From: Candidatus Aminicenantes bacterium
Lineage (GTDB): Bacteria; Acidobacteriota; Aminicenantia; Aminicenantales; JAFGBC01
Reading direction: 5' to 3'
Length of the DNA: 64,000 nt
Assembly (NCBI GenBank): GCA_963702005.1
Contig: OY969696.1
Coordinates: forward strand, 960,001 to 1,024,000
Below are positions 14,568-52,351 of this stretch, in pieces; the first letter of the stretch is position 1; each line of letters starts with the position of its first letter. Position numbers and translations under genes: made by a program. The notes under the pieces were generated by a model. The model was not told the origin of the DNA. It saw nothing but the letters and a program-made list of their open reading frames with translations, and did no database searches.

Positions 14568-14603
14568 GTACTCATGAGACCGTGTCAACGGCTCCATGAG
14601 TGC
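14568..14603. repeat. 36-bp CATGAG-family palindrome; near-identical copies at 15002-15037, 26850-26885, 30196-30231
   Basis: GTACTCATGAG.CCGT.TCAACGGCTCCATGAGTGC hairpin. Confidence 0.85.
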
Positions 14604-14628
14604 GGACCCTTCGTCAAAGGAGACGAGT

Positions 14629-14958
14629 ATGAACATCTATGTCGGCAACCTGTCTTTCAACGTGGCCGAAGCGGACCTCAAGGACTTGTTCAGCCAACAC
14701 GGCACGGTCCAGACGGCCTCCGTCATCAAGGACAAGTATTCGGGCGAATCGCGGGGCTTCGGCTTCGTGGAGATGCCCGAGAAGGAAGAGGCCCTCAAGG
14801 CCATTTCCGCGCTCAACGGCAAGGACCTCAAGGGCCGCGCCCTCAAGGTCAACGAGGCCCAGGCCCGGACCGACCGGCCCCGCACGGGCGGGTTCGGCGG
14901 CGGCGGTGGCCGCGGCGGGTTCGGTGGCGGAGGCGGCGGCCGCGGCGGCCGCTATTAA
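14629..14958 (+). CDS. RRM-domain RNA-binding protein with Gly-rich tail (intact copy)
   Basis: RNP2 IYVGNL and RNP1 RGFGFVEM; AAGGAG RBS. Confidence 0.96.
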   Translation: MNIYVGNLSFNVAEADLKDLFSQHGTVQTASVIKDKYSGESRGFGFVEMPEKEEALKAISALNGKDLKGRALKVNEAQARTDRPRTGGFGGGGGRGGFGGGGGGRGGRY

Positions 14959-15077
14959 TAAAGCCGCGTTAGCGACTTCATTAGTGTGACTATTGCGGCC
15001 TGTACTCATGAGTCCGTATCAACGGCTCCATGAGTGCGGCCGGTACTGATCGCTTAATCAAGAAGCGAATTCGCCAA

Positions 15078-15113
15078 GGGCGGATGTCCCGCAAGGGGCC
15101 TCCGCCTTTTTTT
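15078..15113 (+). terminator. intrinsic terminator of RRM gene
   Basis: GGGCGGA-TG-TCCC-GCAA-GGGG-CC-TCCGCC followed by T run; copies at 26925, 29274, 30272, 41999, 46752 and diverged at 52315. Confidence 0.9.
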
Positions 15114-15160
15114 ATTTATGGGGGGATTTCCGGCACGCTTTTTGAATCAGGCTTCCCGAT

Positions 15161-15909
15161 GTGCCGGGAATCTATCGTCCTCGCCATCCGGAGCGCACGG
15201 TCCTGTACCGGGTGCTGTTCCATAACTTCGACCGGTTCCTGGCCGAATACGGAGGAGTGGGGCGAATGGGTTCGGGAAACCCCGCTCCTCGACGTGCCGC
15301 ACCGCCAGGTTGTCTTCACGATCCCCAAAACGCTTAGGATCTTCACCTCCATTTCCTGGTGAACGAGGGCGGGGTGGACGGGGCCGGGGTCTTCCACAGG
15401 CTGCCGCGTTTGAACGACGCTCGGCTGGCGGAGATCTTCGGCCGGGAGGTGCTCAAGCTACTCGTCGACAAGGGATTGCTCAGCCCGGAGTGGGCGGAAC
15501 GGATCTTGTCCTGGAGGCACACGGGCTTCAACGTCCACAGCCGGGTCCGGGCCAGGACAAAAGCCGAAGCTGAGCGTGTCTGGAAATACATGATCCGGTC
15601 GGTGCGGGCCCTGGAGCGGCTCTTGTTCCTGGAGAGCGAGGGGAAGGTCGGCTATCGTCACGGCCCCGATGGCGCCGAGCTCGAGCGGATGGACTATCTG
15701 GAGTTCATCGCCAGGGTGACCTCTGGAGGAGAGGTCTGGCGGATTTCCGGCACTTTGGAGCGTCCCCGCGGCCTTTGAGTCCGCCTTCAGCTATTTCGGC
15801 AACTTGACATCCTTTCAGATCATGTTTTATCATCCCGGACGAGGGGAAGAGGCAAAACCGGCGCTTGCACGCCCATTTAGCTGGCGCAGCAGAAAACGAA
15901 TTTCTTATC
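15161..15909 (+). pseudogene. internally deleted IS91-family (Y2 HUH) transposase relic with oriIS-like end
   Basis: Collinear pieces in different frames: [58 protein letters not shown]; ends AAAACGAATTTCTTATC. Confidence 0.8.
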
Positions 15910-16149
15910 AACAGCCTGTATTGACCAGTGACTAATGCCTGGATCTATGCTTCCTCACTATGGTTGGAGGGGCAAGAGAGGTAAAAATGCAATCGTTGCC
16001 GGCGGACCCTAAAAACCAAATTCCTATAGATAATCCCATGCATAATTTGACATTGGATCCTGTTCAGGATTATCATCCCTAAAAATGGGATGGGGCAAAA
16101 AAGAAAATCGTTATTTCTTCATCCCAACTGTCGCAAAAAGGAGGTTTTC

Positions 16150-16689
16150 ATGAAAAAGATTTGGGGGAAGAGTGTTTTTGTCGGAGTTTCTATTTTGGCT
16201 GTCTGTGCAATGTTTTTGGCGTCACAGCCGACTCCCGCAAAGATTCGAGTAGGGACATTTGATTCCCGGGCTGTCGCCATAGCGTATGCTCGATCCGCCA
16301 TGTTTGCCCCAATCATGAAGGGTTGGAAGGATAAATACGAAAAAGCCAAGGCTGAGAAAAATGAGGCGGTGATCAAAGAATGTGAAGCCTGGGGCCCCAA
16401 TTATCATAGATTCCAGATGCTCCAGGGCTTCAGTATAGCCTCAGTTGCTGATATCCTTGAAAAGGTCAAAGATCAGCTGCCCAAGGCAGCCCAAGAGGCT
16501 GGTGTTGATATTCTTGTGAGCAAATGGGAACTTGCCTACCAGAACCCATCCATAGAGATTGTCGATGCGACATCTCATCTGGTAAAGTTATTCAATCCCG
16601 ACGAACGGACACTCAAGATAATCGAAGGACTGTCAAAGCAGCCGCCCATTCCATTATTCGAAGCGCTGCAAATGAAGGAAGAAGAATAA
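16150..16689 (+). CDS. secreted hypothetical protein
   Basis: GGAGG RBS, signal peptide, upstream TTGACA-N18-TATCAT (16047-16076). Confidence 0.8.
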   Translation: MKKIWGKSVFVGVSILAVCAMFLASQPTPAKIRVGTFDSRAVAIAYARSAMFAPIMKGWKDKYEKAKAEKNEAVIKECEAWGPNYHRFQMLQGFSIASVADILEKVKDQLPKAAQEAGVDILVSKWELAYQNPSIEIVDATSHLVKLFNPDERTLKIIEGLSKQPPIPLFEALQMKEEE

Positions 16690-16781
16690 GAAGCAGTCCG
16701 GGCTTCACCGAGGCTGAGGATGCCGGGAAGAAGCTGGCTATGGTGAAAAGCTAGGCAAAAGACCGAAAGGAGGTGAAAATC

Positions 16782-17180
16782 ATGATTGAAAGAGTCCATC
16801 AGCATATCATCGAGGAACTCCAACAGAACGCGCGCACGGATACGATCTTCATCATTACGTCAATTCTTCTCAACCTTCTAACTCTGGCCGTCAACTCCGG
16901 CGTCGCCCAGGGGAAGAGCGCAAACCGCACGATTGTCATGCTCGTTTTTGTGAGTCTGACGATTGTGGTCAATCTCGTGGTCATCATCGGTATCCTCAAG
17001 GGAAAGCAGACCAGATCACGGCTTCTCAGTGGACTGATCAAGATGTATAAAGACCAGGGAGTGGACGGCTACTATGATCCCTCACTCCTGGGCAATTACA
17101 GCACGAGGTACAATCTCTTCATCCTTGTCGTTGTGTTCGTCGGCTTGATCGCTATTATCGTTCCGTTCATTAGCAAATAA
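16782..17180 (+). CDS. hypothetical membrane protein (about 3 TM)
   Basis: AGGAGGTG RBS; three hydrophobic segments. Confidence 0.8.
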   Translation: MIERVHQHIIEELQQNARTDTIFIITSILLNLLTLAVNSGVAQGKSANRTIVMLVFVSLTIVVNLVVIIGILKGKQTRSRLLSGLIKMYKDQGVDGYYDPSLLGNYSTRYNLFILVVVFVGLIAIIVPFISK

Positions 17181-17715
17181 GAACGAAAACTCTGACGCGT
17201 CAACAATCAATCTGACGCGGTTCAGTAGGCGTATCTTACGGCGAAAACTTCGACAACGGCCCGAGCGGCTAGCTGGCCAACCGCTATGATCCGCTCCCGA
17301 TCATTGAGGGGTTCGCCTACTGCTACAGCCCGTGGTATCTCAACAGCTATCACGCTCCGCCGGGGGCCGGCTACCTCCACATGCTGATGTATCTCTATAC
17401 GAGCGATAAGTATGTCGGCGCCGACCGCAAATCCCACCTCCAGGGCAACCGGTTCATCGAGCAGAACAAGAGCACCGACCTGACCAACGCCCGGCCAATA
17501 TCGCGGCCGAGCTCGCGATCATCAGAATACGGCGTTGGTGCATACTCATGAACATTTTGGGATTCTTCCGTTTCCATTTCCCTCCACGGGGCGGTAACGC
17601 CTGTGGACGTCTTCTCGCCTGATTCGCACCTCTGAGATGGAGCTCTTCCCATTCCTTCAGGCAGACGCGGCCCGATCCATGACATTGGCCCGTTTCCGGG
17701 AGCTTTTCTCCGGCC

Positions 17716-18060
17716 ATGGCGGGAGAGTATCGTCCCCGGCATCCGGAGCGGACCGTCCTCTGCCGTGTGTTGTTCCACCATTTGGAGCGCTTCCTGGCCG
17801 AGTACGAGAGCCGCTTCGAGCGGGAGTACGGCTACTTCCGGCCGATCGTCAAAGAAGTCGTGGAGCGTTACCTCTATGGCGATCAGAAATTCGTCACTCC
17901 GGCTTGGGGCAAGACCGGCAACTACCATTTGAAAAGCGGCAGTCCGGCGATCAATCGAGGGACTGCGACCGGCGCGCCCAAAGATGATCTGGATCAGAAG
18001 AAGCGCGATTCCAAACCCGATATAGGCGCTTACGAATTTGGGGCGACCGGCCGGAAATAA
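17716..18060 (+). pseudogene. chimera: IS91-like transposase N-terminus fused to C-terminal choice-of-anchor-Q/beta-helix fragment
   Basis: [15 protein letters not shown]...KEVVERYL (homologous to 15161) joined to [13 protein letters not shown]...PDIGAYEF. Confidence 0.7.
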
Positions 18061-18150
18061 GGGAAAGGTTGTCTTTCCAATTCAGAAAACCCGGAGGTTA
18101 AAGCCGGCCTCGAACGTCCGTCCCCGCCAGGGATATCCCGGCCCGGTATA

Positions 18151-18228
18151 GTTGAAGACCTAACGGGGGAAACGCTTGTCCCCGGTATCGTTGCCGCCGT
18201 CCAGACCTTCGGGGACCGGATCAACTGG
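18151..18228 (+). pseudogene. IS91-like transposase internal fragment
   Basis: Translates LVPGIVAAVQTFGDRINW, the segment preceding the HUH motif. Confidence 0.6.
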
Positions 18229-18434
18229 GGCCGGGAGGCGGCCGGACTTGATGAGAGGAAAAGCCCGAGCTTTTTTTGTGTCACGTCAATCCCCGATTTG
18301 CTCAAAGACCAATCCCCCGGCCATTTTTCAGGGACATTTCGGCGGTGCCGGCTTGTGATGTTGTGTCAGACGTTCATTGGTGAGAAAATAGCGCGGACGG
18401 AATTTCCGAGGCTGGCTTCGCTGAAGGAGGAACA

Positions 18435-19313
18435 ATGAAAAAATCTCTGCTGGTCGTTTTGGCCGTTGTCCTGGTCTTTGCGATCGTCGCAGCGGCCCAG
18501 CAACCGGCCCAGAAACTCAAGGTCTTCATTTCCGTTGACATGGAAGGGGTCAGTGGGCTCGTCAATTGGGATGAAACGGATAACAAGGGCTTTGATTATC
18601 CGCTTTTTCGGAAACTGATGACAGAGGAAGCCAACGCGGCTATCTCAGGCGCTCTCGCGGCGGGAGCGACTGAGATCGTCGTCCGGGATGCCCATGATAG
18701 CGCCCGAAACATCCTGCCGGACCTGCTCAGACCCGAAGCGCAGCTCATCCGTGAATGGAGCGGGCCGCTGAGCATGATGGAGGGCATCGACAAGTCGTTC
18801 GACGCGGTCGTTTTCATCGGCTACCATGCCCGGGCCGGGACGCCGAATGCCGTCCTCAAGCACACGATGAGCCTTTCCGTCTTTGACCTTATCCTTAACG
18901 GCGTCCGCCTGCCGGAGGCCGGTTGGAACGCCGCCATCGCCGGCTATTTCGACGTCCCCGTCGTGTTCCTTTCCGGCGACGCCGCCATCTGCAGCCAAGC
19001 CCGGGAAATCATCGGGAACATTGAGACGGTTGCCGTTAAAGAGGGCATCGGCAAGGCGGCCAAGATGATTCATCCTTCGAAGTCCCAGGAGCTCATCAAG
19101 AAGGGGGTCGCCGCGGCCCTGAGGAACCTCAAGGCTTACAAACCCTACAAGCCGACGCCTCCCTACAAGCTGGAGATCGTTTTCACCGAAGAAAACCTGG
19201 CCCAGGCCGCATCATGGGTTCCCGGCGCGATCCGGACGGGCGAACGGTCCGTGGCATTCACGTCCTCCGACTTTATGGATATCATCAAGTATTTCCACGT
19301 CGTCGGGCTCTAA
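18435..19313 (+). CDS. M55 family D-aminopeptidase (DppA-like) with signal peptide
   Basis: ISVDMEG, DAH, IGYHA, HT motifs. Confidence 0.92.
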   Translation: MKKSLLVVLAVVLVFAIVAAAQQPAQKLKVFISVDMEGVSGLVNWDETDNKGFDYPLFRKLMTEEANAAISGALAAGATEIVVRDAHDSARNILPDLLRPEAQLIREWSGPLSMMEGIDKSFDAVVFIGYHARAGTPNAVLKHTMSLSVFDLILNGVRLPEAGWNAAIAGYFDVPVVFLSGDAAICSQAREIIGNIETVAVKEGIGKAAKMIHPSKSQELIKKGVAAALRNLKAYKPYKPTPPYKLEIVFTEENLAQAASWVPGAIRTGERSVAFTSSDFMDIIKYFHVVGL

Positions 19314-19385
19314 GGACTGACGTCAACGACGTTTTTCCGATCGATCCAGCGACGAATGACGGACATGGGAACCGTGTGAGATCAT

Positions 19386-21488
19386 ATGAAATCTCCCCTG
19401 AGCGGGCGAATCGCCGGCGATGTCGTCAGGTGGTGTTCGGCGTTTTCGTTGGTCCTATCGCTTGGTGTTTGGCCCGGTCAGGCGGCCGGCAAGGACCTTC
19501 CCCCAAAGTACCGTGCCTGGCTTCAAGAAGAGGTTGTCTACATCATCACTCCCCGGGAAAAAGATGTTTTTCTCCGGCTCGAGACGGACAGAGAGCGCGA
19601 CCTTTTCATTGAGGCCTTTTGGAAGCAGCGGGATCCGACTCCGGGGACGCCGGAAAACGAGTTCAAGACCGAACACTATCGTCGGCTCAACTACGCCAAC
19701 ACCCACTTTGGCAGGCAGTCACCCATTCCCGGCTGGAGAACGGACCGGGGCCGGATCTATATCATCCTGGGAGAGCCAAACGACATCCAGCACTTCGAGG
19801 CCGGCCAGGAGACCTATCCGGCCGAGGTCTGGTTCTACCAGAACAAGGCGGAATTCGGGCTGCCTGCGGGTTTCAACATCGTCTTCTTCAAGGAGCATGG
19901 AAGCGGCGACTATAAGCTCTACAGCCCGGTCAGGGATGGCCCCCAGGCCTTCCTGGCGAATTATGTCGGGGACGTAGCCAACGTGACTGCGGCCTATCGG
20001 AAACTGCGGGTTCTCGAGCCCAGCCTGGCCCAAGTCTCCCTCTCGCTCATCCCGGGCGAGGATTCCACGGCCTTCGGCCGCCCATCTCTTTCCTCCGACC
20101 TTCTTCTCCAACAGGTGGAATCGCTCCCTGAAAAAACCGTCCGGGACCAGTATGCGCAAAGATTCCTCCAGTACAAGGATATCGTCGAGGTGGAGTATTC
20201 GGCGAACTATCTGGACAGCGATTCCGTCGTCAAGATTCTGAAGGCGTCTCCAATGGCGAACTGCATCCATTATTCAATCGAGCCCGCCAGGCTCTCGGTC
20301 AGTCAATACGGTGAAAAATACAGCACCACTCTGACCCTCAACGGGTCGGTCAAAGACGAAGCCGGAAAAGTCATCTACCAGTTCGATAAAACCCTTCCCG
20401 TCTCGTTCGGGGAGGAAGAGATGAAGAACATCAGCCGGCGGCCTTACGCCGTCTACGATGTCTTCCCCCTAATTCCAGGATCATACGACCTCTCCATCCT
20501 ACTCAAGAATGAGATCTCCAAGGAGTTCTGCTCGCTGGAGCGGAAGCTGGTCATCCCAGCCGAGGAATCCAGGGCCTGGGTGACGCCGCTCCTCCTCGGC
20601 TACCAAGCCGATAGGGTCGAGCCCGGCCGAAGCAGGCTCAAGCCGTTCCAGCTTGGCGGCCAGACGCTCTTGCTCCAGGCGAACCGGACCTTTGCCAAAT
20701 CCGAGGAGCTCGTCCTTGCCTTTCAGGTTTGGGGAGTTCCCCAGGGTCTTAAGGATAACGCCGAAATTGTCTTCACCTTCCTCAAGGATGCCCAGACCTT
20801 TAAGACTTATGCGAGACCGGCGGCGGGATACGCGGCCTTTCCCGACGTGATCGAAACTGTGCCCTTGGCTGAGTTCATCCCGGCGCACTATGAGATCCAG
20901 GTCTCGGTCCGCGCGACGGGGCAAGAGATCGCCGCCGCCAAAGACGAGTTCGACATCACACCCCGAGAAAAAGTCGCCCGGCCCTGGGTCATGGTGAAGA
21001 TCATGCCGGGTATCGATGACCCCGCCTATCCCTTCCTCATCGGAAACCAGCTTTTCAATGCCGGGCGCCTCAAAGAGGCGCACTCGCTCCTCGAGGAGGC
21101 CTTCAAGAAAAGGCCGGAAGATACGGACTACGCGCTCGCCCTGGCCCGGTCTGACATGGCGCTTCAAGACAACTCGAGGGTGGAGGCGCTTCTCCTTCCC
21201 TACTTCAATCAGGCCAAGCCGCCGCGCTATAACATGTTCGTCCTTCTGTCAAGCTCCTACCACCAGAAAGGGGAATGGGAAAAGGCTCTCAAGGTCATCG
21301 AACAGGGTATCTCACACTACGGGCTCAGCACCGGATTCCTGAACCTCCGCGGGGACTGCTATTTGAGGTTGGGGAACAAAGCCGAAGCGCTGGCCGCCCT
21401 TGAAAAATCGCTGGAGCTCAACCCCAATCAGCCGGAAGTCCAGAAGGTCGTCAATTCTCTCAAACAGAAGAACACGACAGCCAGCTGA
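19386..21488 (+). CDS. GWxTD domain protein with C-terminal TPRs
   Basis: FWKQRDPTPGT.ENE, GWRTDRGRIYI.LG.P; TPR tail. Confidence 0.92.
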   Translation: MKSPLSGRIAGDVVRWCSAFSLVLSLGVWPGQAAGKDLPPKYRAWLQEEVVYIITPREKDVFLRLETDRERDLFIEAFWKQRDPTPGTPENEFKTEHYRRLNYANTHFGRQSPIPGWRTDRGRIYIILGEPNDIQHFEAGQETYPAEVWFYQNKAEFGLPAGFNIVFFKEHGSGDYKLYSPVRDGPQAFLANYVGDVANVTAAYRKLRVLEPSLAQVSLSLIPGEDSTAFGRPSLSSDLLLQQVESLPEKTVRDQYAQRFLQYKDIVEVEYSANYLDSDSVVKILKASPMANCIHYSIEPARLSVSQYGEKYSTTLTLNGSVKDEAGKVIYQFDKTLPVSFGEEEMKNISRRPYAVYDVFPLIPGSYDLSILLKNEISKEFCSLERKLVIPAEESRAWVTPLLLGYQADRVEPGRSRLKPFQLGGQTLLLQANRTFAKSEELVLAFQVWGVPQGLKDNAEIVFTFLKDAQTFKTYARPAAGYAAFPDVIETVPLAEFIPAHYEIQVSVRATGQEIAAAKDEFDITPREKVARPWVMVKIMPGIDDPAYPFLIGNQLFNAGRLKEAHSLLEEAFKKRPEDTDYALALARSDMALQDNSRVEALLLPYFNQAKPPRYNMFVLLSSSYHQKGEWEKALKVIEQGISHYGLSTGFLNLRGDCYLRLGNKAEALAALEKSLELNPNQPEVQKVVNSLKQKNTTAS

Positions 21489-21637
21489 AGCACGACACGA
21501 TAAATTTCGGCTCTGATTTTGAGAGCGCCACATTTTCGCTTGACATTCCATGCGGCATTTTGTATCTAGTAATCACAAAGGGGAATACGTGCATAGAGAC
21601 CCTTGAAGAGGGAATTCGAAATGCGAGGGGAGAGATT

Positions 21638-24382
21638 ATGAAAAAATCGCAGGCCTTTCTTTTTCTCGTCCTTTTCGCCGTTTTGTTTACCCTTAGCGCC
21701 TCTGTTCTTGAAGCGCAGCGGCTGACCGGCATCATCCGCGGAACGGTCACGGACGAAGAAGGCGAGCGGCTTCCCGGCGTGACCATTGCCGTCCAGAGCC
21801 CCGCCCTCATTGGCGGCGCCAAAACGGCGGTCACTCCGGCCAGCGGCACTTTCCTTTTCCCGGCGCTACCCCCCGGTAAGTACACCGTCAATTTCACCAT
21901 GCCGGGATTTCAGCCGGTCATGAGAGAGAATATCGTCGTCTCGGTCGACAGGACGGCGACCATCGATATCTCTTTAAGGCTGGCCGTCCTGAAAGAGGAA
22001 GTCACAGTTGTCAGCCAGTCCCCTGTTGTGGACATAACAAAATCCGGCATCTCCACAGTCTACGACCAGCAGCTCTTGGAGAGCGTCCCTAAAGCGCGTT
22101 TCACCTATTTGGATATCATGTACTGGGCCCCTGGGGTTTCGATGAACGAGAACGCTACCGAGGAATGGCATTCATCATTCGGCTCGACGTTCGCGTCGGA
22201 CAACTACCTGGTCGACGGGGTCGACACTTCCTTCGACTGGAACGGCACGACCTGGGTCTGGAACAACCCCGATATCTACGCAGAAGGAGAGGTTGTGGCC
22301 ATCGGCGCGCCGGCGGAGTACGGAGATTTCCAGGGCGCCGTGGTCAACGTGGTCACCAAGTCCGGCGGCAACGATTTTCACGGGGGACTTAGCTTCTACG
22401 CTGTTCCCAGCCCCTTTGTAGGCAAAAACGTGGAAGGCGCCGAGTTTCCCTACCATATCGGCAAAAACTGGGACGCCAGCTTTGACCTCTCCGGCCGGAT
22501 TGTCAAGGACAAGATCTGGTACTACGGCAATGCCCAGTGGAAGAAATACGAATACTCCCAGCTGGGAACAGACCCGGCGTGGCCGACCAAAGCGGACTAT
22601 AAAAGGTTTTTCGTCAAGGGCACTTTCCAGCTGGCCAAGAATCACAAGCTGGTCGTCTCCTACCAGCATGAATGGTCCCAACTTCCAGATGTCATCACTC
22701 CCTCCGTGCCATTCGACGCGTGCGGTTCAGAACCTGGGAATTACGGCGTTCCCAACATCATGCTGACTTCCGTCCTCAGTCCTAACACAATTCTCGAATT
22801 TAAGGTCGGCGGCTGGTTTGTCAATGACAACTGGAAGCCGCTGGACGGCAACTTGAACGAGTCGCTCTACCGCGACATAGGAACCGGAGTCGATGCGCAC
22901 GGCATCTGGACCTGGAGCGAATCCAAATACACCAAGCTACAGATCAACGCCTCGGTGTCTCATTTCGCCGACGATTTCATCAAGGGCAACCACGAATTTA
23001 AGGCGGGAGTCCAGTACACCCGAGGGAGCGCTAAAACCATCGGTTCCTATTCCGGTGGTGCGGTATATTATCTCATGAATGGAGAGCCTTACTGCGCATA
23101 TTTCCAGGCTCCCTACAGCGATGGCGAAGTCATCAACAAGCTGGGAGTGTTCTTCGACGACGCCTGGACGATCACCAAACGCCTGACCCTCAACCTGGGG
23201 CTCCGCTTTGACCATCAGGACGGCAACATCCTGTCGGTCGACAAAATCGACATCAATATGAAGAAGACCGGGGAAAAGACACCCGGATTTGACAATGTTC
23301 TTGTTTGGAATACCTGGTCTCCGCGGCTGGGCCTGGTTTATCAGCTGACCTCGGACATGAAGACCATCCTGAGGGTCAACTACGGCCATTATTACGATGG
23401 GATGACCCAGGATTCGTTTGCTAGGATGAGCAAAGGTTATCCGACCGTCTATACTTACGGCTATAACCCGGATACGGGCAAATACGATGACTTTTGGGGT
23501 TCCTTCGACCCGGCCGCCGGCTATGTTATGGGCAAACCCAAGAACAGCCTATGCCGGCAGTTCTCGGTGGGCGTCACGCGTGAGATCATCACCGACCTGG
23601 CCCTCGAATTGACCTATGTCTATAAATATACCGACAACTTTGCGACCTGGTGGAACACAACGGCCCAGTTCGAGGAGGTCCCGTTTTACGATGAATATGC
23701 CCAAAAGGTCATCACTGTTTATAATCAAACAACACCGCTCGAAAACGATATCTTTACATATCAAAATCTTTCCGAGTTCAAACAAAAATACCGGGGTTTG
23801 ATCATCGGCCTCCAAAAGAGGCTTTCCCACAATTGGCTGATGAACAGCTCGTTTGTCTGGTCGAAGGCGAACGGCATGTCCGGCCTCAATCAACTGACCC
23901 AACAATCGGGGACGAGGACCGGAATCCAGAATCCCAACTCGCTCATTAACAATAACTGGGACAGCTTCCTCCAGAGCGACCGGACCTATATGTTCAAGCT
24001 GCAGGGGACTTATTTCCTGCCCGCCGAATTCAGCGTCAGCGCGAATTTCGTCGCCCAAACGGGGAAGCCGATTGCCAGGCTTATTCCCCTTGTCAGTACT
24101 GACGAGTATCCTCTGAACGCGCAGAAGGTTAAACAGATCATGGGCGATTCCCGAGGATCCCATTTCAGGCTTGCCCCCTACTACATGCTCGACTTCAGGC
24201 TGGACAAGAGATTCAAGTTGGGTCGAGGGGCATCGGTCGATATTGCGGCCGACTTTTTTAACCTTCTGAATACCGACGCGATTACGGGGACAGTCGACAT
24301 CGGGACATCGAGCTGGTTTATGAAGCCTGATACAGTTACGCCTCCGCGCCGGATCCAGCTCAGCCTGCGTGTGATTTTCTAA
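21638..24382 (+). CDS. TonB-dependent receptor with carboxypeptidase-regulatory-like N-domain
   Basis: G.V.D..G..LPGV N-domain, VVNVVTKSGGN plug motif, SPRLG, C-terminal Phe. Confidence 0.92.
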   Translation: MKKSQAFLFLVLFAVLFTLSASVLEAQRLTGIIRGTVTDEEGERLPGVTIAVQSPALIGGAKTAVTPASGTFLFPALPPGKYTVNFTMPGFQPVMRENIVVSVDRTATIDISLRLAVLKEEVTVVSQSPVVDITKSGISTVYDQQLLESVPKARFTYLDIMYWAPGVSMNENATEEWHSSFGSTFASDNYLVDGVDTSFDWNGTTWVWNNPDIYAEGEVVAIGAPAEYGDFQGAVVNVVTKSGGNDFHGGLSFYAVPSPFVGKNVEGAEFPYHIGKNWDASFDLSGRIVKDKIWYYGNAQWKKYEYSQLGTDPAWPTKADYKRFFVKGTFQLAKNHKLVVSYQHEWSQLPDVITPSVPFDACGSEPGNYGVPNIMLTSVLSPNTILEFKVGGWFVNDNWKPLDGNLNESLYRDIGTGVDAHGIWTWSESKYTKLQINASVSHFADDFIKGNHEFKAGVQYTRGSAKTIGSYSGGAVYYLMNGEPYCAYFQAPYSDGEVINKLGVFFDDAWTITKRLTLNLGLRFDHQDGNILSVDKIDINMKKTGEKTPGFDNVLVWNTWSPRLGLVYQLTSDMKTILRVNYGHYYDGMTQDSFARMSKGYPTVYTYGYNPDTGKYDDFWGSFDPAAGYVMGKPKNSLCRQFSVGVTREIITDLALELTYVYKYTDNFATWWNTTAQFEEVPFYDEYAQKVITVYNQTTPLENDIFTYQNLSEFKQKYRGLIIGLQKRLSHNWLMNSSFVWSKANGMSGLNQLTQQSGTRTGIQNPNSLINNNWDSFLQSDRTYMFKLQGTYFLPAEFSVSANFVAQTGKPIARLIPLVSTDEYPLNAQKVKQIMGDSRGSHFRLAPYYMLDFRLDKRFKLGRGASVDIAADFFNLLNTDAITGTVDIGTSSWFMKPDTVTPPRRIQLSLRVIF

Positions 24383-24407
24383 GTAGGGAGATCCCTGGCA
24401 ACTTCGG

Positions 24408-40228: not shown

Positions 40229-40252
40229 CCGCGAAAGGAGGCTCGAACGACC

Positions 40253-41977: not shown

Positions 41978-41998
41978 GGGTCACATTCGAATCGCCGA

Positions 41999-46696: not shown

Positions 46697-46789
46697 CGCT
46701 TCGGCGGCCGCGACCGCTACTGATCGCCCAGTCTGAGAGCGAGTTCGGCCAGGGCGGATATCCCGCAAGGGGCCTCCGCCCTTTTTTTT
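46697..46789 (+). pseudogene. RRM gene 3'-end relic 5 plus terminator
   Basis: GGCGGCCGCGACCGCTACTGATCGC (GGR.RY*) then terminator at 46752-46789. Confidence 0.85.
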
Positions 46790-47844: not shown

Positions 47845-47920
47845 ATGACATTTATTCGGGCGAATCGCGGGGCTTCGGCTTCAAGGCCATCTCCGCGCTC
47901 AACGGCAAGGACCTCAAGGG
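47845..47920 (+). pseudogene. doubly internally deleted RRM gene relic 6
   Basis: ATGACATTTAT joined to TATTCGGGCGAATCGCGGGGCTTCGGCTTC joined to AAGGCCATCTCCGCGCTCAACGGCAAGGACCTCAAGGG. Confidence 0.85.
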
Positions 47921-47981
47921 CTGGAACCTCATGGAATCTTGATTTCTTGACACCTGTCCGGGGCGGCGATATCCTTTCTTT

Positions 47982-50318
47982 ATGAGGAGAAGGGTGGATT
48001 CTGAGCCCGAGGACGAGAAGCACCTGATCGGGCAGACGGTGTCGCACTACCTCATCTTGGAGAAACTCGGCGGCGGCGGCATGGGGGTCGTGTATAAGGC
48101 CAAGGACACCCGGCTCAAGCGTCCGGTCGCCTTGAAGTTCTTGCCCGAAGCGATGTCCCGGGACCGGCACGCGCTGGACAGATTCGAGCGGGAGGCCGAG
48201 ACGGCCTCGGCCTTGAATCACCCGCACATTTGCACGATCTACGACATCGACAAGCATGAAGGCCGGCATTTCATCGCGATGGAGCTGCTCGAGGGCCAGA
48301 CGTTGAAACAGTGCATCGTTTCGAAGCGGCTGGGGGTGGCTAAGATCCTCACGATGGCGCTCGAGGTGGCCGACGGTCTCGAGGCCGCCCACGCCAGAGG
48401 GATCATCCACCGGGACATCAAGCCGGCCAACATCTTCGTCACCCGGCGCGGGCAGGCCAAGATCCTCGATTTTGGGTTGGCCAAGCTGGCGGCGGAACGA
48501 GGTGCCGTTGCCGAGATCCTTACGGCCCAGCTTGTGACGCGCACGGCCCCCGAGCCGCTGACAAGCCCCGGCACAACCGCCGGGACGGTGCCGTACATGT
48601 CCCCGGAACAGGCGCTCGGGAAAGACCTGGATGCGCGGACGGATCTATTCTCGCTGGGGGTCGTGCTGTACGAGATGGCGACGGGCCATTTGCCCTTCCA
48701 TGGGGACACGGCCGCCGCGCAGTTCGACAGCCTCCTGCACCAGGCGCCGACGCCTCCCGCGCTCCTGAATCCGGACGTTCCTGGCGAGTTGGAGCGGATC
48801 ATCAACAAGGCTCTCGAAAAGGACCGCGAGGCCCGTTATCAATCGGCCAGGGATCTGCAGGCTGACCTGACGCGGCTGAAGCGCGAGAGCGAGTCCGGAC
48901 GCGCGGCCGCGGCTTCCGTCGTCGCCGCGCCCCCGCGACTTCGATCGCTGGCGGTGCTGCCGTTCACGAACATGAGCGCGGACAAGGAGAACGAGTACTT
49001 CTGCGACGGCCTGAGCGAAGAGCTCATCAACGCCTTGAGCCATATCCGGGAGCTGAGGGTGGCGGCCCGGACCTCGGCCTTTGCCTTCAAAGGGAGAGAG
49101 ATCGACATCCGCGAGGTCGGGAAAAAACTGAACGTGGGCGCGGTTCTGGAAGGAAGTGTCCGAAAATCCGGACAGCGATTGCGCATCGCCGCTCAGCTCG
49201 TCAACGTCGAGGACGGCTACCATATCTGGTCCGGCCAATTCGACAGGGAAATGAAGGATATTTTTGACATTCAGGAAGAGCTATCACTGACCATCGTGGA
49301 TCATCTGAAGCTCGAACTGTTGACAGGCGAGAAGGAAAAAATCCTCAAGCGATATACGGAAAATCACGAAGCCTACGATTATTATCTGAAGGGACGCTAT
49401 TTCTGGTATCGACGCTATGAGAAGGGCATGCAAAAAGGCCTCCAATATTTTCAGCAGGCCATCGAAAAAGATCCCGGCTATGCCCTGGCCCACGTAGGAA
49501 TCGCCGACGCGTTCAACTTTCTCGGGCTCTTCGGTTTCATGCCGCCACAGCAGGCCTATTCGCGGGCCAGGGCGGCGGCGGAGAAGGCCCTGGAGATCGA
49601 CCCCGAGCTGGCCGAGCCTCATGCCTCTCTGGGCTGGATCGCCATGTGGTACGACTGGGACTGGCCGGCCTCCCAAAGACATTTCTTGAGGGCCATCCAG
49701 AAGAAACCGGATTATGCTCCCGCCCATATCTGGTATGGCAATTATTTCTGGTGCATGGCGCGTTTTGACGAGTCCATCCTGCAGATGCTGAAGGGCTGCG
49801 AACTGGAGCCTCTTGAGCCGGTCAACGCCACGCATTTGGGCTTGGCTGTCCACGTGGCGCGTCGTTTCGATGAGTCGATTGAAAAACTCCGCAATGTCAT
49901 CGAGTCGGATCCGGAGTTTTCGCTCGCGTATTGGTACCAGTCGTTTAATTTCTTAGCCAAAGGAATGTGGGCCGAAGCGATCGCCACGCTGCAAAAATTC
50001 GTCGAACTCACGGCGGGATCGATCATGGCGTTGTCCACATTGGGTTTTGCCTATGGCTCGGCAGGAATGAAGGATGAAGCTTTCAAGATTTTCGAGCGGC
50101 TGGACGGGCTGGCGAAAGATCGTTATGTCGGGCCCATCTATAGGGCTATGGTGTGGACAGGACTCGGCGAGAAGGACAAGGCGTTGGAGAATCTGGAAAA
50201 GGCCTATCGGGAGAAAGAATCGATCATGGCCTCCATCAAGACTTGGTGCATATTCGACAGCCTGCACTCGGAGCCAAGGTTCCAGGCCTTGCTAAAGAAA
50301 ATGAATCTCGATCAATGA
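47982..50318 (+). CDS. Hanks-type Ser/Thr kinase with TolB-N-like and TPR domains
   Basis: [30 protein letters not shown]; SLAVLPF.N domain; TPRs; start may be GTG 47994; promoter TTGACA-N17-TATCCT at 47947-47975. Confidence 0.95.
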
Positions 50319-50378
50319 GATTCGAATCCTCTCGGGCGCATTTTTCGCGTCTCCCCAACAGCGCAGTTCTATCTGAGT

Positions 50379-50672
50379 CTAGTAGAGATAATCCGAAACA
50401 AGAATATCGCTAAAAACGGAAGGCAACTTCGCGGCTACGGCTTTATGCTTAGGATGGTCAAGATAGCTTTTCAAAGCGGCTTCGTCATCGAAATCAATAA
50501 ATAAGGCCATGCCATAGCGCACTTGGCCTCTGACTTCTAAAGCTTGACCCAGGACAAGATTATGCACTCCTGGTAGTTGCGTTAATATTTCAACAGCCTT
50601 TTTAGCAAACTCCTCTCGCTCAGGTTGATCGACCTCAGCCTTAAAATTGCTCATAACGATATGCCTTATCAT
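50379..50672 (-). CDS. Dabb (stress-responsive A/B barrel) protein
   Basis: MIRHIV..FK, F.D..AL..Y..HP.H; AGGAGG RBS. Confidence 0.88.
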   Translation of the reverse strand: MIRHIVMSNFKAEVDQPEREEFAKKAVEILTQLPGVHNLVLGQALEVRGQVRYGMALFIDFDDEAALKSYLDHPKHKAVAAKLPSVFSDILVSDYLY

Positions 50673-50832
50673 GTTCTCCTCCTACCATAGAATTAAGATG
50701 CTTTTTATTAATACAATCTAATAATAATCATATTGTACCGAATAAGCGAACCAAAGCATCATATTTTTCTCGATTTTACTACACATCAAAAACAAGCCCA
50801 TAGGCAAATGCGGCACGGCCTCCCGGCACGCC

Positions 50833-50878
50833 GTCGGCAATTCAATATTCGGGCGAATCGCGGGGCTTCGGCTTCGTC
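50833..50878 (+). pseudogene. RRM gene relic 7
   Basis: 32-nt exact match TATTCGGGCGAATCGCGGGGCTTCGGCTTCGT preceded by GTCGGCAA and TTCAA from the gene 5' end. Confidence 0.75.
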
Positions 50879-50924
50879 CCGACTGCATTTGGGCTATTGA
50901 CAACTTGCCGCGGCCGTCAATATC

Positions 50925-51797
50925 ATGCCCCTTGAAATGACTCCTGACGCTCCATCCGCAAACTCCCGTTCGGGGATCCTGGCCATGGCGGCGGCCGCGT
51001 TCCTGTGGAGCATCGCCGGGCTGTTCATCAAGGTGATCGACTGGAACCCCTTCGCCATCGCCGCGGCGCGCAGCGCCGTCTCGGCGCTGGTCATCCTCGC
51101 CTGGCTGAAGCGGCCGAAGATCCACTGGTCGGCTCCGCAGGTCGGGGCGGCCCTGGCCCAGGCGGCCACGATGCTGCTCTTTGTCGCCGCCAACAAGACC
51201 ACCACCGCAGCCAACGCCATCCTGCTCCAGTATGTCGGCCCGGTCTTCACCGCCATCCTCGGCGCCTGGATCCTCAAGGAGCGCGCCCGCTGGGAGCACT
51301 GGGCCTCCTTCGCCTTCGTCGCCGCCGGCATGATCCTGCTCTTCATGGACAAGCTGGGCGGCGGCCGCCCGCTGGGTAACGTCCTGGCCCTTTTGTCGGG
51401 GCTGACCTTCAGCTTCTGCTTCATATTCCTGCGCATGCAGAAAGACGCCTCGCCGCTGGAGTCGATCCTGCTGGCCCACGGCTTCACCGCCGCGACCGGT
51501 TTCGCCGTTGCCCTCTTTCTGCCCTGTCCCGTCTTCACCTGGAAGGCGGTCGGCGCCGTCGCCGTACTGGGTGTCTTCCAGGTCGGCCTGGCGTCCATTC
51601 TGTTCGCTTACGCCATCAAGCGCATCTCGGCCGTCTTCGCCAACCTGGTCGCCGTCATCGAGCCGGTCTTCAATCCGTTATGGGTTTTCCTGGCGCTGGG
51701 CGAAAAGCCGGGGGTCCATGCCATAGCCGGCGGCCTGATCATCATCGTCGCGGTGACGGGAGCTTCGATCATCGGAGCCGGCCGGGATCGGACATAA
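50925..51797 (+). CDS. EamA/DMT family transporter
   Basis: About 10 TM segments, ANAILLQY..PVF, IEPVFNP..V.L.LGE; start uncertain. Confidence 0.9.
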   Translation: MPLEMTPDAPSANSRSGILAMAAAAFLWSIAGLFIKVIDWNPFAIAAARSAVSALVILAWLKRPKIHWSAPQVGAALAQAATMLLFVAANKTTTAANAILLQYVGPVFTAILGAWILKERARWEHWASFAFVAAGMILLFMDKLGGGRPLGNVLALLSGLTFSFCFIFLRMQKDASPLESILLAHGFTAATGFAVALFLPCPVFTWKAVGAVAVLGVFQVGLASILFAYAIKRISAVFANLVAVIEPVFNPLWVFLALGEKPGVHAIAGGLIIIVAVTGASIIGAGRDRT

Positions 51798-51859
51798 GCC
51801 AGACGGCGGAAAGACGACTTGGGCTTTATTAAACCAAGATCTGGGCGGAGCTAGCCTCT

Positions 51860-52108
51860 GCCAATGACTGGCTGATGTCGCTCGAGCGATCGCTTCTGGC
51901 TGAAAAAGGGCTGCCCGGGCGCCCATGGTTCCGGCACCTCATCTATGCACCGCTGCCCTCCTACGCCGCCGAGACGCTCCCCGCCGTGCGCGAAGCCATC
52001 GAAGCCGCCAAGGCCGAGGACGCGAAGGCGCGCATCCGAGAGCTCGTCGCAAAGCTCGATAACGCGACATCCCACGCCCGCCGAATGAGTTCTTTTCAAG
52101 GTAACTGA
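51860..52108 (+). pseudogene. C-terminal fragment of M28 glutamate-carboxypeptidase-II-like protein (transferrin-receptor dimerisation domain)
   Basis: ND.LM.LERS.L...GLPGRPWFRHLIYAP...Y....LP...EAI. Confidence 0.75.
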
Positions 52109-52351
52109 AGCGGACCTCAAGGAGCTGTTCGGCCAGCACGGAACGGTTCAGACCGCGTCGGTCATCAAGGACAAGTATTCGGGCGAATCGCGGGGCTTCG
52201 GCTTCGTGGAGATGCCCGAGAAGGAAGAGGCCCTCAAGGCCATCTCTGCGCTCAACGGCAAGGACTTCAGTCCCCTTCGCGGGATTGCACGGACGTAAGG
52301 CTGTGGAGCTTCAGGGGCGGATTTCCCGGAAAGGGAAGTCCACCCTCTTTT
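52091..52351 (+). pseudogene. RRM gene relic 8 (divergent allele) with hairpin and diverged terminator
   Basis: Encodes FKVTEADLKELFGQHGTVQTASVIKDKYSGESRGFGFVEMPEKEEALKAISALNGKD; then TCCCCTTCGCGGGATT. Confidence 0.9.

Follow-up and report, generated by a model that had tools for sequence, protein, structure and literature searches.

Islands of the additive type found at tRNA genes are arranged as an intact target gene followed by co-oriented repeats of its 3' end. For ISCR1, the description in PMC6218425 places the variable region on the oriIS side, gives 84% of adjacent genes as co-oriented and locates POUT promoters within the oriIS region, and PMC13393415 assigns terIS to the region upstream of the transposase start codon. 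Here we describe 58 kb of stacked strain-specific genes, with relics of an RRM gene and leftovers of a rolling-circle insertion sequence (IS) between them, lying 3' of the single-copy rrn operon of an uncultured wetland Candidatus Aminicenantes bacterium (G000; one contig of 4.31 Mb, 4,309,361 bp). The window is the whole stretch of DNA analysed, 64,000 nt from position 960,001 to 1,024,000 on the forward strand of contig OY969696.1 (assembly GCA_963702005.1), and coordinates refer to it unless marked as genomic.

The left anchor of the array is the genome's only 5S rRNA gene (14292-14408, plus strand; Rfam RF00001, 97.6 bits), the last gene of the rrn operon. As the preliminary description had proposed, one intact RRM gene, encoding an Rbp-type RNA-binding protein whose tail is Gly-rich, follows on the same strand (14629-14958; PF00076, 82.7 bits; NF058537, 108.3 bits, above the cut-off of 100), its conserved MNIYVGNL start lying 221 bp beyond the 5S end and the first ATG/GTG of the ORF at 14596. 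Its 5' UTR contains a 38-bp palindromic, REP-like element (14568-14605, plus strand) that is repeated at 15002-15039, 26850-26883 and 30196-30233 and also occurs within the 3' end of IS91 transposase genes of G000, G001 and G025. The copy at 15002-15039 (plus strand, 94.7% identity) belongs to the 3' UTR of the intact allele type and is absent from relics K and M and from two copies in the congener G001 (C306a/b), where the Gly tail passes through a GRY-stop directly into the terminator module. Of 15 aligned copies, 12 preserve that module (15078-15124, plus strand), a G+C hairpin, T-run and G-run with a terminator-like site at 15093-15110 followed by the T-run.

BLASTN searches with positions 14409-15400 against the window and 14541-15140 against the whole genome recovered 13 relic loci (A to M) spanning 26.6-72.7 kb, all on the plus strand, with 19/19 HSPs in that orientation within genomic positions 986,605-1,032,660. 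Relic A (26605-26960; 87.6% over 387 bp) extends from reference position 14727 into the 3' UTR and terminator, while B (27784-27830) is an internal 47-bp piece with 100% identity to the intact gene, sharing its 3' break, and the identical REP-like repeat that comes next, with J. The Gly tail, a variant hairpin and the terminator make up C (29087-29315; 71% over 231 bp), and tail, hairpin and terminator make up D (30170-30309; 90% over 120 bp), which lies 3' of a Usp gene and matches relic L at 94% identity over 67 bp. Only the terminator module is left in E (41988-42053; 91% over 67 bp; terminator-like site 42014-42031); F (44394-44419) is the weakest relic, an internal 26 bp (96% identity, E 3e-4 against the whole genome); and G (46710-46787; 82% over 78 bp; terminator-like site 46767-46784) comprises the gene end and terminator 3' of a beta-propeller gene. 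Two internal RRM pieces form H (47847-47934; 94% over 36 bp and 89% over 54 bp), I (50846-50877) is 32 bp of the RNP1 region at 100% identity, and J consists of reference 14655-14830 (52094-52269; 90.9% over 176 bp), a 42-bp REP-like insert with at least 30 copies genome-wide, and the terminator (52312-52362). Relics K (67237-67330), L (68554-68704 and 69066-69127) and M (72607-72660) lie beyond the window end.

Every one of the at least eight plus-strand relics in the preliminary description was recovered within about 15 bp, together with four further loci (F inside the window; K, L and M past its end). The array, first delimited as 14568-52351, in fact reaches 72.7 kb. Outside the array, the genome search returned a full-length RRM paralogue at genomic position 1,122,596 (81% identity), a single relic, about 100 bp of 3' sequence at 4,008,078, one Gly-rich low-complexity match and hairpin-only matches at 5,485, 8,713 and 2,828,819. 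Relics are thus clustered rather than scattered genome-wide in both orientations, and 13 co-oriented loci inside 1.4% of the genome cannot be explained by chance. Several of the short relics arose through secondary deletion or have a REP-like repeat and an IS110-family element interrupting them. The latter (27831-29086, minus strand; PF02371) is frameshifted and sits within the REP-like repeat 3' of relic B; it has four further genome copies (75-87% identity), and in wetland metagenome contigs from 2/4 runs position 27833 is joined to 29024 and the element is absent.

A new finding is the physical linkage of IS91-family remnants to the RRM gene and its relics. Fused to the terminator of the intact gene is a remnant (15125-16100, plus strand) in which the N-terminal coding part and internal pieces survive alongside a stack of three 3'-end remnants (15723-15910, 15914-16031 and approximately 16047-16100), matching transposase residues 3-30, 95-125 and 176-302 by tblastn and model positions 77-260, 451-544, 691-1074, 1455-1645 and 1532-1647 by nhmmer. 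A second remnant (17565-18224; nhmmer model 19-347 and 612-684; left-end alignment) has kept its own left end. Further 3'-end remnants lie directly 3' of relic E (42043-42213; model 1471-1649, E 7.9e-14) and about 850 bp 3' of relic J (53210-53324; model 1539-1652, E 1.8e-7), and two internal fragments were found at 55082-55214 (model 921-979 and 1202-1271; tblastn). Directly 3' of relic H, a module from the IS91 3' region (47941-48015; 89% to G001 C183, 107-177 bp past the transposase stop) is fused to the start of a Ser/Thr kinase gene, and another remnant abuts relic K. Promoter-like TTGACA-N17/18 sites face outward from the IS 3' region, two within 15125-16100 (TTGACA-18-TATCAT) and one in the kinase-linked module (TTGACA-17-TATCCT, 47947-47975). 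All of these remnants are on the plus strand, as are 12/12 nhmmer IS91 fragments in the genomic interval 974-1033 kb; the 33 fragments elsewhere divide into 12 plus and 21 minus.

The RRM gene has the same setting in relatives. In all 18 Candidatus Aminicenantales genomes whose 5S gene was located on fetched DNA (18/18), an RRM ORF lies 105-236 bp downstream of the 5S on the same strand, and in four of them, spanning three families (G000, G013, G017 and G019), the 5S-proximal RRM or the last tandem copy has an IS91 remnant no more than about 300 bp behind it; remnants also occur 3' of relics in G001 C306 and G019 C4. When metagenome contigs were scanned for exact occurrences of a 22-nt motif internal to the IS, eight matches were obtained, two of them unrelated, and an RRM gene or relic was immediately upstream in 6/6 of the remainder (among which L126 repeats G019 C4, and L125 and L130 are 98.6% alike). 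Behind the RRM of L130 is a full-length element (NF033538, 198.6 bits against a cut-off of 125; PF14319, 73.3 bits; PF04986, 85.4 bits), and on these profile scores the RRM-linked element is assigned to the IS91 family. Five of seven aligned RRM/IS91 junctions do not contain a left-end segment of about 100 bp present in L130 and L128, with the boundary identical in all five, and the junction copies of G000 and G019 share bases that set both apart from six other IS91 copies. L125 and L130 are 98.6% identical over 5S, RRM and full IS91 and unrelated from the exact IS right end onward, a comparison of short-read contigs crossing a repeat, in which a chimeric join is possible.

Five results support the earlier idea of an additive hotspot, where an incoming RRM allele brings cargo and the older 3' end is left downstream. 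The coding parts of the relics share 85-97% identity with the intact G000 and G001 alleles (81% for the in-genome paralogue), and the proposed excess of synonymous differences from the intact gene is present in A (7 synonymous, 0 non-synonymous over 63 codons) and J (10 and 5 over 58 codons), L being mixed (4 and 5 over 35 codons) and the rest too short. Terminator stems form two allele classes sorted by position, one at 14-47 kb (intact copy and relics A, C, D, E and G) and one at 52-73 kb (J, K, L and M) that is also carried by all four aligned G001 copies. Identical cargo was not found in two congeners, where approximately 50 kb (15.1-64.8 kb) has no DNA counterpart except IS, MITE, relic and 64-74% paralogue matches; the first cargo block (16090-25584, plus strand; by Pfam two small ORFs, an M55 peptidase, a GWxTD/TPR protein, a TonB-like outer-membrane barrel and a TPR protein) has only 70-72% paralogue matches in G001 and G002. 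Immediately after the intact RRM of G001 comes the orthologue of 67238-68660 (89.5% identity). Finally, beyond an IS256-type (Mutator family) transposase fragment (25976-26431, minus strand; PF00872, E 3e-32, profile positions 8-138 of 379), a foreign purB allele is represented by a 145-bp 5' fragment (26460-26604, plus strand) fused to relic A; this fragment is 88.3% identical to the resident purB (genomic 3,688,194-3,688,338), 2.7 Mb distant, and 92% and 91% identical to the G001 and G002 copies.

The reading we favour, at about even odds, is that the locus grew by ISCR1-like accretion, with homologous recombination at rrn/RRM/IS91 as its anchor. In Candidatus Aminicenantales the single rrn operon precedes an RRM gene, and a rolling-circle IS91-family element has become attached directly past the terminator of that gene. 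The transposase is co-directional with RRM, so the terIS side faces RRM and the oriIS side the variable DNA, and most copies do not have the left-end segment of about 100 bp. This architecture, the RRM-IS91 linkage and the joints are shown by the data, whereas we infer rolling-circle read-through, its direction and the order of events as follows. Rolling-circle events would begin at oriIS and traverse the element into RRM, sometimes reaching the 5S, with variable stop points, yielding units of partial RRM, terminator, IS91 and captured DNA. These units, or longer donor fragments, from the same or a related cell could then enter the rrn/RRM/IS91 locus by homologous recombination, with microhomology-mediated joining within the resident RRM gene closing the far end, and each event would place a fresh intact RRM beside the 5S and shift the old 3' part downstream. 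Every IS91 copy here is degraded, so the array is on this reading a fossil record, which deletions and REP, MITE, IS110 and IS256 insertions have eroded further. Several observations count against this reading: there is no intact IS91 transposase in the genome (45/45 nhmmer matches are fragmentary, even the best of them, at 4.152 Mb, being a partial copy), IS91 lies within 1 kb of a relic at only 4/13 loci (downstream of E, H and J; upstream of K), only 4/18 genomes carry it at the 5S-proximal RRM, and no GTTC/CTTG target is evident adjoining the IS right end. None of the complete genomes G003, G017 and G023 showed an RRM/IS91 unit away from rrn, so free transposition of such units is not seen.

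The main rival, which we regard as possible but doubtful, is homology-facilitated illegitimate recombination (HFIR) with IS91 as a bystander. Linear DNA of related cells, putatively taken up, would pair at the conserved rrn/RRM and be joined by microhomology at its far end inside or just behind the resident RRM, IS91 being a frequent RRM neighbour that is merely carried along. Both distal joints with identifiable parents (2/2) lie on microhomologies of 8-13 nt, 11 of 13 nt between the purB fragment and relic A and 8-10 nt between an IS91 C-terminal fragment and relic K. This does not exceed what plain illegitimate recombination would give, with no need of a transposase, which counts against the ISCR1-like reading; joining through 3-10 bp segments has precedent in the three naturally transformable species documented in PMC6382021. 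The purB piece, a housekeeping fragment from a related species, resembles a random donor-fragment end, the relics look like once-functional alleles at species-level divergence, and rrn offers a near-identical anchor of about 5 kb (5S 85-91% identical across families). Fourteen of the 18 genomes, with extra RRM copies or none, have no IS91 at the proximal gene, and a fixed IS91-RRM neighbourhood with homology-anchored import alone would also give relics followed by IS91. HFIR nevertheless leaves unexplained why one IS91 sub-lineage was found solely behind RRM in the true metagenome matches, the identical truncated left end at five junctions, the halt of L125/L130 identity exactly at the IS right end and the three stacked IS 3' ends at 15723-16100. 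Both mechanisms put forward at the outset, homology-anchored recombination with an illegitimate distal joint and IS91-type one-ended capture, gain support, the former from the microhomologies and the latter from the IS91 linkage.

It is unlikely that the relics descend from an old tandem RRM paralogue family behind the 5S, in which unrelated genes were inserted and copies decayed in place with no import of alleles. Intact copies do occur in multiples elsewhere (three in tandem in G017; two each in G023, G010 and G028; three in G018; two in G024; three over 52 kb in G003), and a long functional life before truncation would also yield synonymous bias. However, intact copies within other genomes share 62-79% identity at the protein level, against 85-97% between relic coding sequences and the intact G000 and G001 alleles, all congener copies have the distal and none the proximal terminator class, the G001 intact gene is joined directly to the K-L block, and the foreign purB fragment and the 50 kb absent from congeners point to import.

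Tandem, site-specific insertion of islands at the RRM 3' end, catalysed by a tyrosine or serine recombinase and followed by decay, would match the tRNA-type pattern and is very improbable, being largely refuted by the absence of a nearby recombinase (0/12 PF00589 and 0/2 PF00239 genome matches within 400 kb, in agreement with the initial claim of no integrase in the window, and none among 30 cargo ORFs scanned with Pfam) and by relic 5' ends that vary from reference position 14655 to 15066, and thus no fixed att length. The window does carry degraded IS91, IS256 and IS110 transposase remnants. Least probable of all is a metagenomic assembly artefact of collapsed or mis-joined repeats, since, even though relics are repeats of an assembly-fragmenting type and G001 is in approximately 500 contigs, several ending at relics or 5S, the present genome is one contig, its relics are mutually diverged (71-100% identity) and so would not collapse together, similar arrays are present in independently assembled genomes of other families and on metagenome contigs, and contigs of four wetland metagenome runs match long cargo pieces at 95-99% or more.

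A further point against the ISCR1-like reading is that the transposase does not reach the ISCR clade model (NF052416, 134 bits against a cut-off of 925). The suggestion that the locus acts like an integron without attC or IntI is best narrowed, as the nearest parallel to the locus is offered by the ISCR1 complex class 1 integron and not by the integron itself. Ultimately, the build of the array is much like that of the ISCR1 gene-capture regions of resistance plasmids.

The genome under study (G000) is a single contig of 4,309,361 bp, and its sole rrn operon lies within the window, comprising the 16S rRNA gene (9254-10780), tRNA-Ile and tRNA-Ala listed between 16S and 23S, the 23S rRNA gene (11217-14230) and the 5S rRNA gene (14292-14408). 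An intact RRM gene follows as an ORF at 14629-14958, 221 bp past the 5S, with a terminator of a G+C hairpin and T-run behind it (15093-15118). The encoded protein has a single RRM_1 domain with RNP motifs (PF00076, 82.7 bits; NF058537, 108.3 bits), placing it among the bacterial RRM (Rbp) proteins. Synteny of 5S and RRM extends across the order Candidatus Aminicenantales: an RRM ORF was found on the same strand, 105-236 bp past the 5S, in all 18 genomes with a 5S located on fetched DNA (G000, G001, G003, G004, G006, G010, G012, G013, G016, G017, G018, G019, G022, G023, G024, G028, G029 and G030), leaving out 10 of 20 fetched stretches that held an RRM paralogue but no 5S, or held no RRM. On contigs lacking 23S sequence, the congener G001 also has three to four copies or fragments of the 5S (L002, which is contig C306, at 458-517, 11578-11688 and 15869-15983; L016), some of them fused to RRM relics, and its relic units extend back into the 5S.

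Downstream of the intact gene, BLASTN of the RRM gene and its flanks against the window and the whole genome uncovered 13 relic loci (A-M), all on the plus strand. Relic A (26605-26960) corresponds to reference positions 14727-15113, relic B (27784-27830) to an internal 47 bp, relic C (29087-29315) to the stretch from Gly tail to terminator, relic D (30170-30309) to tail, hairpin and terminator, and relic E (41988-42053) to the terminator only. These are followed by the 26-bp relic F (44394-44419), the weakest of the series, relic G (46710-46787; gene end and terminator), relic H (47847-47934; two internal pieces), the 32-bp relic I (50846-50877) and relic J (52094-52362; reference 14655-14830, an insert and the terminator), with relics K (67237-67330), L (68554-69127) and M (72607-72660) lying past the window end. 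The relic positions in the preliminary description were accurate to about 15 bp by BLASTN of window and genome, and its picture of a co-oriented local series held genome-wide, with all 19 HSPs on the plus strand and one 3' relic elsewhere rather than copies scattered in both orientations. Outside the 58-kb stretch, BLASTN returned only the full-length paralogue (81% identity), one 3' relic of about 100 bp, one low-complexity match and matches to a 38-bp palindrome. This sole 3' relic outside the array (genome 4,008,078-4,008,179; last codons and terminator) is of an allele type with an end like that of the G019 gene, and IS91 fragments lie 1-6 kb downstream of it on the opposite strand. A fixed breakpoint at the 3' hairpin of relics G, K and M, which would suggest a recombination site, was considered and discarded, as alignment identified these relics as alleles without the hairpin insert and traced the apparent breakpoint to a Gly-rich coding tail left unaligned by BLAST.

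Right after the terminator of the intact gene lies an IS91-family remnant (15125-16100, plus strand) made up of the first transposase codons, internal pieces and 3' ends. This copy in the window consists of fragments only (PF04986, 20.2 bits against a cut-off of 20.9), and full-length relatives of about 423 aa were found in G017, G022, G010 and G008. A full-length copy behind 5S and RRM at the metagenome locus L130 belongs to the IS91 family by its N-terminal zinc-binding domain and Y2 HUH catalytic domain (NF033538, 198.6 bits against a cut-off of 125; PF14319, 73.3; PF04986, 85.4), and HxHxH and RYYGLYAN stretches were seen in four full-length copies. The ISCR clade model NF052416 scored 134.4 bits against a cut-off of 925, which leaves the element outside that clade. 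Two candidate ends were seen in full-length copies, the right one conserved and the left one a hairpin with a T-run behind it. The right end of IS91 typically abuts a target tetranucleotide of the GTTC/CTTG type; none was evident after the right ends here, where flanks differ between copies and the last base of the element is uncertain.

Of the 45 IS91 fragments that a DNA profile made from four full-length copies detected in G000, the 12 within the array are without exception on the plus strand, and the 33 elsewhere fall in 23 loci (12 plus, 21 minus). Inside the array, plus-strand remnants directly follow relics E (42043-42213) and H (47941-48015), another (53210-53324) trails relic J by 850 bp, and one (67150-67242) comes immediately before relic K. 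Doubt over whether 47941-48015 is IS91 was dropped after comparison of 3' regions showed its membership. Four right ends in G000 (15910, 16031, 42213 and 53324) are each followed by different DNA. Outward promoter-like sites are also present in the IS91 3' region (TTGACA-18-TATCAT at 15804-15833 and 16047-16076; TTGACA-17-TATCCT at 47947-47975), and in two cases the downstream ORF begins inside the 3'-region module, at 16090 (a small ORF) and at 47982 (a kinase gene, 47982-50318). On G001 contigs C183, C408 and C315, this module lies ahead of unrelated genes.

Co-oriented, left-truncated IS91 copies recur behind RRM in relatives, and variable DNA starts from IS right ends. IS91 was found in the same orientation as an RRM gene or relic, and no more than about 300 bp from it, on G001 C306, G013 C31, G017, G019 C16 and G019 C4, and at the 5S-proximal RRM gene in 4 of the 18 genomes, representing three families. 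The IS91 fragment of G019 C16 has 90% protein identity to a G001 copy, compared with about 75% between the RRM proteins of these genomes; the IS91 is therefore younger than the family split. Five of seven aligned RRM/IS91 junctions (G000, G013, G019 C4 and the metagenome loci L123 and L127) lack a segment of about 100 bp between the terminator G-run and the IS and share one boundary, with 13 extra bases in G019 C4. The other two, L130 and L128, retain this segment, which has a hairpin inside and looks like the left-end region of full-length copies at other sites. On these alignments, the left-truncated junction is a shared derived state. As the loss is upstream of the transposase, and the terIS side of ISCR elements is described as the region upstream of the transposase start in PMC13393415, most RRM-linked copies have probably lost part of terIS, the left, RRM-facing end.

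Metagenomes were scanned with a 22-nt pattern from the IS part, giving eight matches of which two were unrelated sequence. An RRM gene or relic lay immediately upstream in all six true matches, and the 5S in three of them. The terIS side was therefore joined to the same segment in each of the six, as well as in G000, G013 and G019, which is the arrangement of ISCR1-type elements. Over 2.9 kb (5S, RRM and complete IS91), loci L125 and L130 share 98.6% identity, and they are unrelated exactly from the IS right end onward; both are short-read contigs across a repeat, so a mis-join is possible. A variable region starting at oriIS, the right end, is accordingly seen in this short-read pair and at the four right ends of G000. 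Partial duplicates beyond the variable region, another ISCR1-type trait, comprise relic A behind block 0 (cargo 16090-25584), a relic on G019 C16 about 13 kb behind RRM-IS91, and a second, 5'-truncated RRM relic at L127, 750 bp behind the IS91 remnant and followed by a kinase gene.

Parent sequences could be named at two distal joints, those of relics A and K, and both joints carry microhomology. A 145-bp 5' purB fragment precedes relic A; its identity is 88% to the purB of the genome itself, at a distance of 2.7 Mb, and 91-92% to those of congeners, and 11 of 13 nt at the joint are common to purB and RRM, with one extra base. Relic K is preceded by the last IS91 transposase codons, and at this joint 8-10 G+C-rich nt overlap with the RRM sequence where its Gly tail ends. 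A microhomology joint beside a homologous anchor, as in homology-facilitated illegitimate recombination (HFIR; PMC6382021), was thus present at both, and the two are microhomology-mediated illegitimate joints.

The cargo between the relics is strain-specific. Pfam scanning of 30 cargo ORFs recovered an M55 peptidase, GWxTD/TPR proteins, TonB-like barrels, Usp, a beta-lactamase-fold protein, a beta-propeller protein, two Ser/Thr kinases, an EamA transporter and a sulfatase, together with several secreted proteins without a family. Five consecutive plus-strand ORFs at 32535-41977 encode large secreted proteins, none with a Pfam family above cut-off, and three of the five are mutually similar (64-69% DNA identity). 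DNA searches of 15120-64000 against the congeners G001 (92% complete) and G002 (83% complete) matched only relics, IS/MITE sequences, the purB fragment (91-92%) and DNA at paralogue level (64-74%). Cargo had been proposed to arrive anew with incoming DNA, and its content indeed differs between relatives, with no orthologous cargo DNA for 15120-64000 in these two incomplete assemblies. In tblastn against the genome, four block-0 proteins matched only paralogues of 25-50%, with no tie to the purB neighbourhood. From 64.8 kb on, single-gene blocks are present in G001 at 86-94%, on other contigs and in other contexts. Two such blocks, PEMT-like and beta-helix (L003 833-3110, equivalent to window 64833-67110), are 91-94% alike yet have unrelated neighbourhoods in G001, which suggests gene-sized mosaicism across the genus. 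The orthologue of 67238-68660 (89.5% identity) comes straight after the intact RRM gene on G001 contig C292, and the roughly 52 kb would have been either gained in the G000 line or lost in G001 by inter-relic recombination.

Smaller repeats have since eroded the array. Relics B and J stop at the same reference end position and continue into the same REP-like repeat, which has at least 30 copies in the genome. Inside this repeat at relic B sits an IS110 element (27831-29086) with a frameshifted transposase and four other genome copies (75-87%); contigs of two of four wetland metagenome runs join 27833 to 29024 without it, representing the empty site. The purB piece is truncated by an IS256 fragment, and MITEs of about 115 bp lie behind relics C and D and interrupt L. 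A MITE-like repeat of this length has about 90 BLAST matches genome-wide and was noted at 29333-29557, 30350-30538 and 53036-53159, and at 12030-12150 of L002, several copies being neighbours of relics. The sole recurrent palindrome, of 38 bp, occurs at 14568-14605, 15002-15039, 26850-26883 and 30196-30233 and also at 68.7 kb, does not bound cargo blocks, and is a separate small element (about 50 bp) residing both in untranslated parts of RRM, where it flanks the intact gene, and in the sequence coding for the Gly tail of alleles D and L. The element also sits within the final codons of some IS91 transposase genes of G000, G001 and G025, where its removal restores the reading frame. A gathering-threshold Rfam scan returned rRNA and tRNA genes only and no family for this hairpin. 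Its candidacy as the IS91 origin was rejected, the hairpin being a separate insertion that G001 C183 and full-length IS91 copies lack. Further copies lie at genome 5485-5531 and 8713-8759 (both minus strand), with a related family at 2,828,819 and on G001 contigs C9, C108 and C123.

We propose that rolling-circle read-through from oriIS into RRM would generate partial-RRM/IS91 units, which would enter by homologous recombination in rrn, RRM or IS91, so that new blocks would be added beside the intact RRM gene. We hold such IS91-driven, ISCR1-like accretion with confidence and doubt in equal measure. All IS91 copies in G000 are degraded, most relics are without an IS91 remnant, and IS91 stands at the proximal gene in a minority of relatives only, all of which weaken this reading. 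The same recombination may instead have proceeded with IS91 as a passive neighbour, an alternative that is possible if rather doubtful, as passive carriage of a fixed IS91 neighbour would likewise give relics followed by IS91.

Decay of an old tandem RRM paralogue family appears improbable as the source of the relics. Additional co-oriented RRM copies behind the first are common in relatives: three intact copies in G003 (0, +29 and +52 kb), three tandem copies and a 5'-truncated relic at +12 kb in G017, three copies in G018, two tandem copies in each of G023, G010 and G028, two copies in G024, one 126-bp 3' relic at +16 kb in G016, and in G019 a decayed relic at +13.9 kb, another copy and, on contig C4, two relics.

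The longer relics had been described as differing from the intact gene mainly at synonymous sites, which applies to relic A (63 codons compared, 7 with synonymous and 0 with non-synonymous differences) and relic J (10 and 5 among 58) but not to relic L (4 and 5 among 35); the in-genome paralogue differs at 19 and 18 of 92 codons. Relic coding identity to the intact G000 and G001 alleles was 85-97% (pairwise, overlaps of at least 40 nt), the two intact alleles being 93% alike and the in-genome paralogue 79-85%. Because of this codon comparison and these identities, the relics are alleles of the RRM locus at species-level divergence, which mostly arose under purifying selection. Alignment of 15 3' modules separated two classes of terminator stem, one common to the intact copy and relics A, C, D, E and G (14-47 kb) and the other to J, K, L and M (52-73 kb) and all four G001 copies. 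As the classes sort by position, the distal array represents the genus-typical allele, and the proximal part, including the present intact gene, another.

No site-specific recombinase accompanies the array. The preliminary description had noted no integrase in the window, and this was borne out: the genome has 12 PF00589 matches, not one of them within 400 kb, and the 30 Pfam-scanned cargo ORFs include no recombinase. Unlike an integron, the array has no IntI beside it, and it departs from tRNA-type islands in having no recombinase nearby and relic 5' ends that range over reference 14655-15066 with no fixed repeat length. Logan contigs of the four wetland runs were compared with 14001-34000. 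No contig in any of the four covers about 16.0-19.3 kb, which proves nothing, and the purB/relic A joint is not spanned with 31 letters by any wetland record, one from X3 reaching 27. A joint of 14642 to 26621 in one run was dismissed as an empty site of block 0, being too weak with only 24 letters on one side. These coverage gaps and short bridges leave the long-range assembly neither confirmed nor contradicted. Integrase-mediated integration and assembly artefact, even taken together, are very unlikely to explain the array.

Beyond IS91-driven accretion itself, we tentatively raise the less probable possibility that a terIS-less IS91 derivative, locked to RRM behind the sole rrn across Candidatus Aminicenantales, serves as an integrase-free chromosomal capture and expression platform. 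The rRNA genes and RRM, as the most conserved DNA, might then act as a cross-species landing pad, and the IS might supply captured genes with an outward promoter and sometimes a start codon. If so, the dated relic series would be the first natural record of array building by ISCR-type elements. These elements are held responsible for multi-resistance regions, and their transposition is described in PMC6218425 as never shown experimentally. The array offers an independent, non-clinical system of the same architecture, in which diverged relics allow a comparative test of the read-through/rescue model. It suggests a route for accessory-gene exchange across species in uncultured Acidobacteriota-related bacteria that uses the rrn flank rather than a tRNA and integrase, and relic arrays of this kind explain the fragmentation of rrn-proximal regions in these MAGs. 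IS91 one-ended transposition, ISCR1 regions, HFIR and rRNA-flanked hypervariable regions (SAR11 HVR2, PMC2217521) are already known. A full-text literature search for 'Aminicenantes' and 'IS91' together returned no paper, a narrow result that is no proof of novelty. Within that search, an IS91 locked to a housekeeping RRM behind the sole rrn, with a 13-relic, non-resistance array in an environmental phylum, is apparently without precedent.

Several known systems share parts of this architecture. Like tRNA/tmRNA additive islands, the array presents an intact target and then co-oriented duplicated 3' ends with cargo between, but it has no integrase and no fixed repeat length, and its target is protein-coding. 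SAR11 HVR2, in the 23S-5S interval, is similarly a strain-variable region of about 50 kb beside the sole rRNA genes, which have been proposed as sites of homologous recombination for it (PMC2217521). HVR2 differs in being flanked by rRNA on both sides and exchanged as a cassette, with no relic series or IS91 link described in the sections of PMC2217521 at hand. The Actinomarina hypervariable region was set aside as an analogue because, in the part of its description consulted, it is separate from the rrn operon. HFIR shares the combination of one long homologous anchor and a microhomology joint at the far end (PMC6382021), but has been documented in laboratory transformation, where it occurs as single events that usually delete recipient DNA, whereas the array would need repeated additive events at one locus in nature. 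With IS91/IS1294 one-ended transposition, the element shares the transposase family, apparently two different ends with a hairpin at each, and a left end that can be lost, in which case flanking DNA there would be carried (mechanism in PMC6218425). In contrast to IS91/IS1294, the units here lie only at the rrn/RRM locus rather than scattered, and no GTTC/CTTG target was seen at the right end.

Toleman and colleagues reportedly observed in 2006 a partial duplication of the 3'CS, truncated to a variable extent, and are said to have proposed recombinational rescue. In ISCR1, according to the relevant part of PMC6218425, the 3'CS is always on the left, 24 bp after sul1, and the variable region on the oriIS side, where 84% of adjacent genes are co-oriented and POUT promoters lie in the oriIS region. 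The array differs in its anchor, a chromosomal housekeeping-type RRM behind the sole rrn instead of the integron sul1 end, in its host, an uncultured Acidobacteriota lineage, and in its cargo of secreted, TPR, outer-membrane and kinase genes without resistance genes; up to 13 relics stand in one array, and the transposase is generic IS91-family, below the ISCR clade model. Both systems combine an HUH/Y2 rolling-circle element whose terIS side abuts a conserved segment tens of bp past the gene end, variable and mostly co-oriented genes from the oriIS side, outward promoter-like sites in the oriIS region, and a partial second copy of the conserved segment beyond the variable region.
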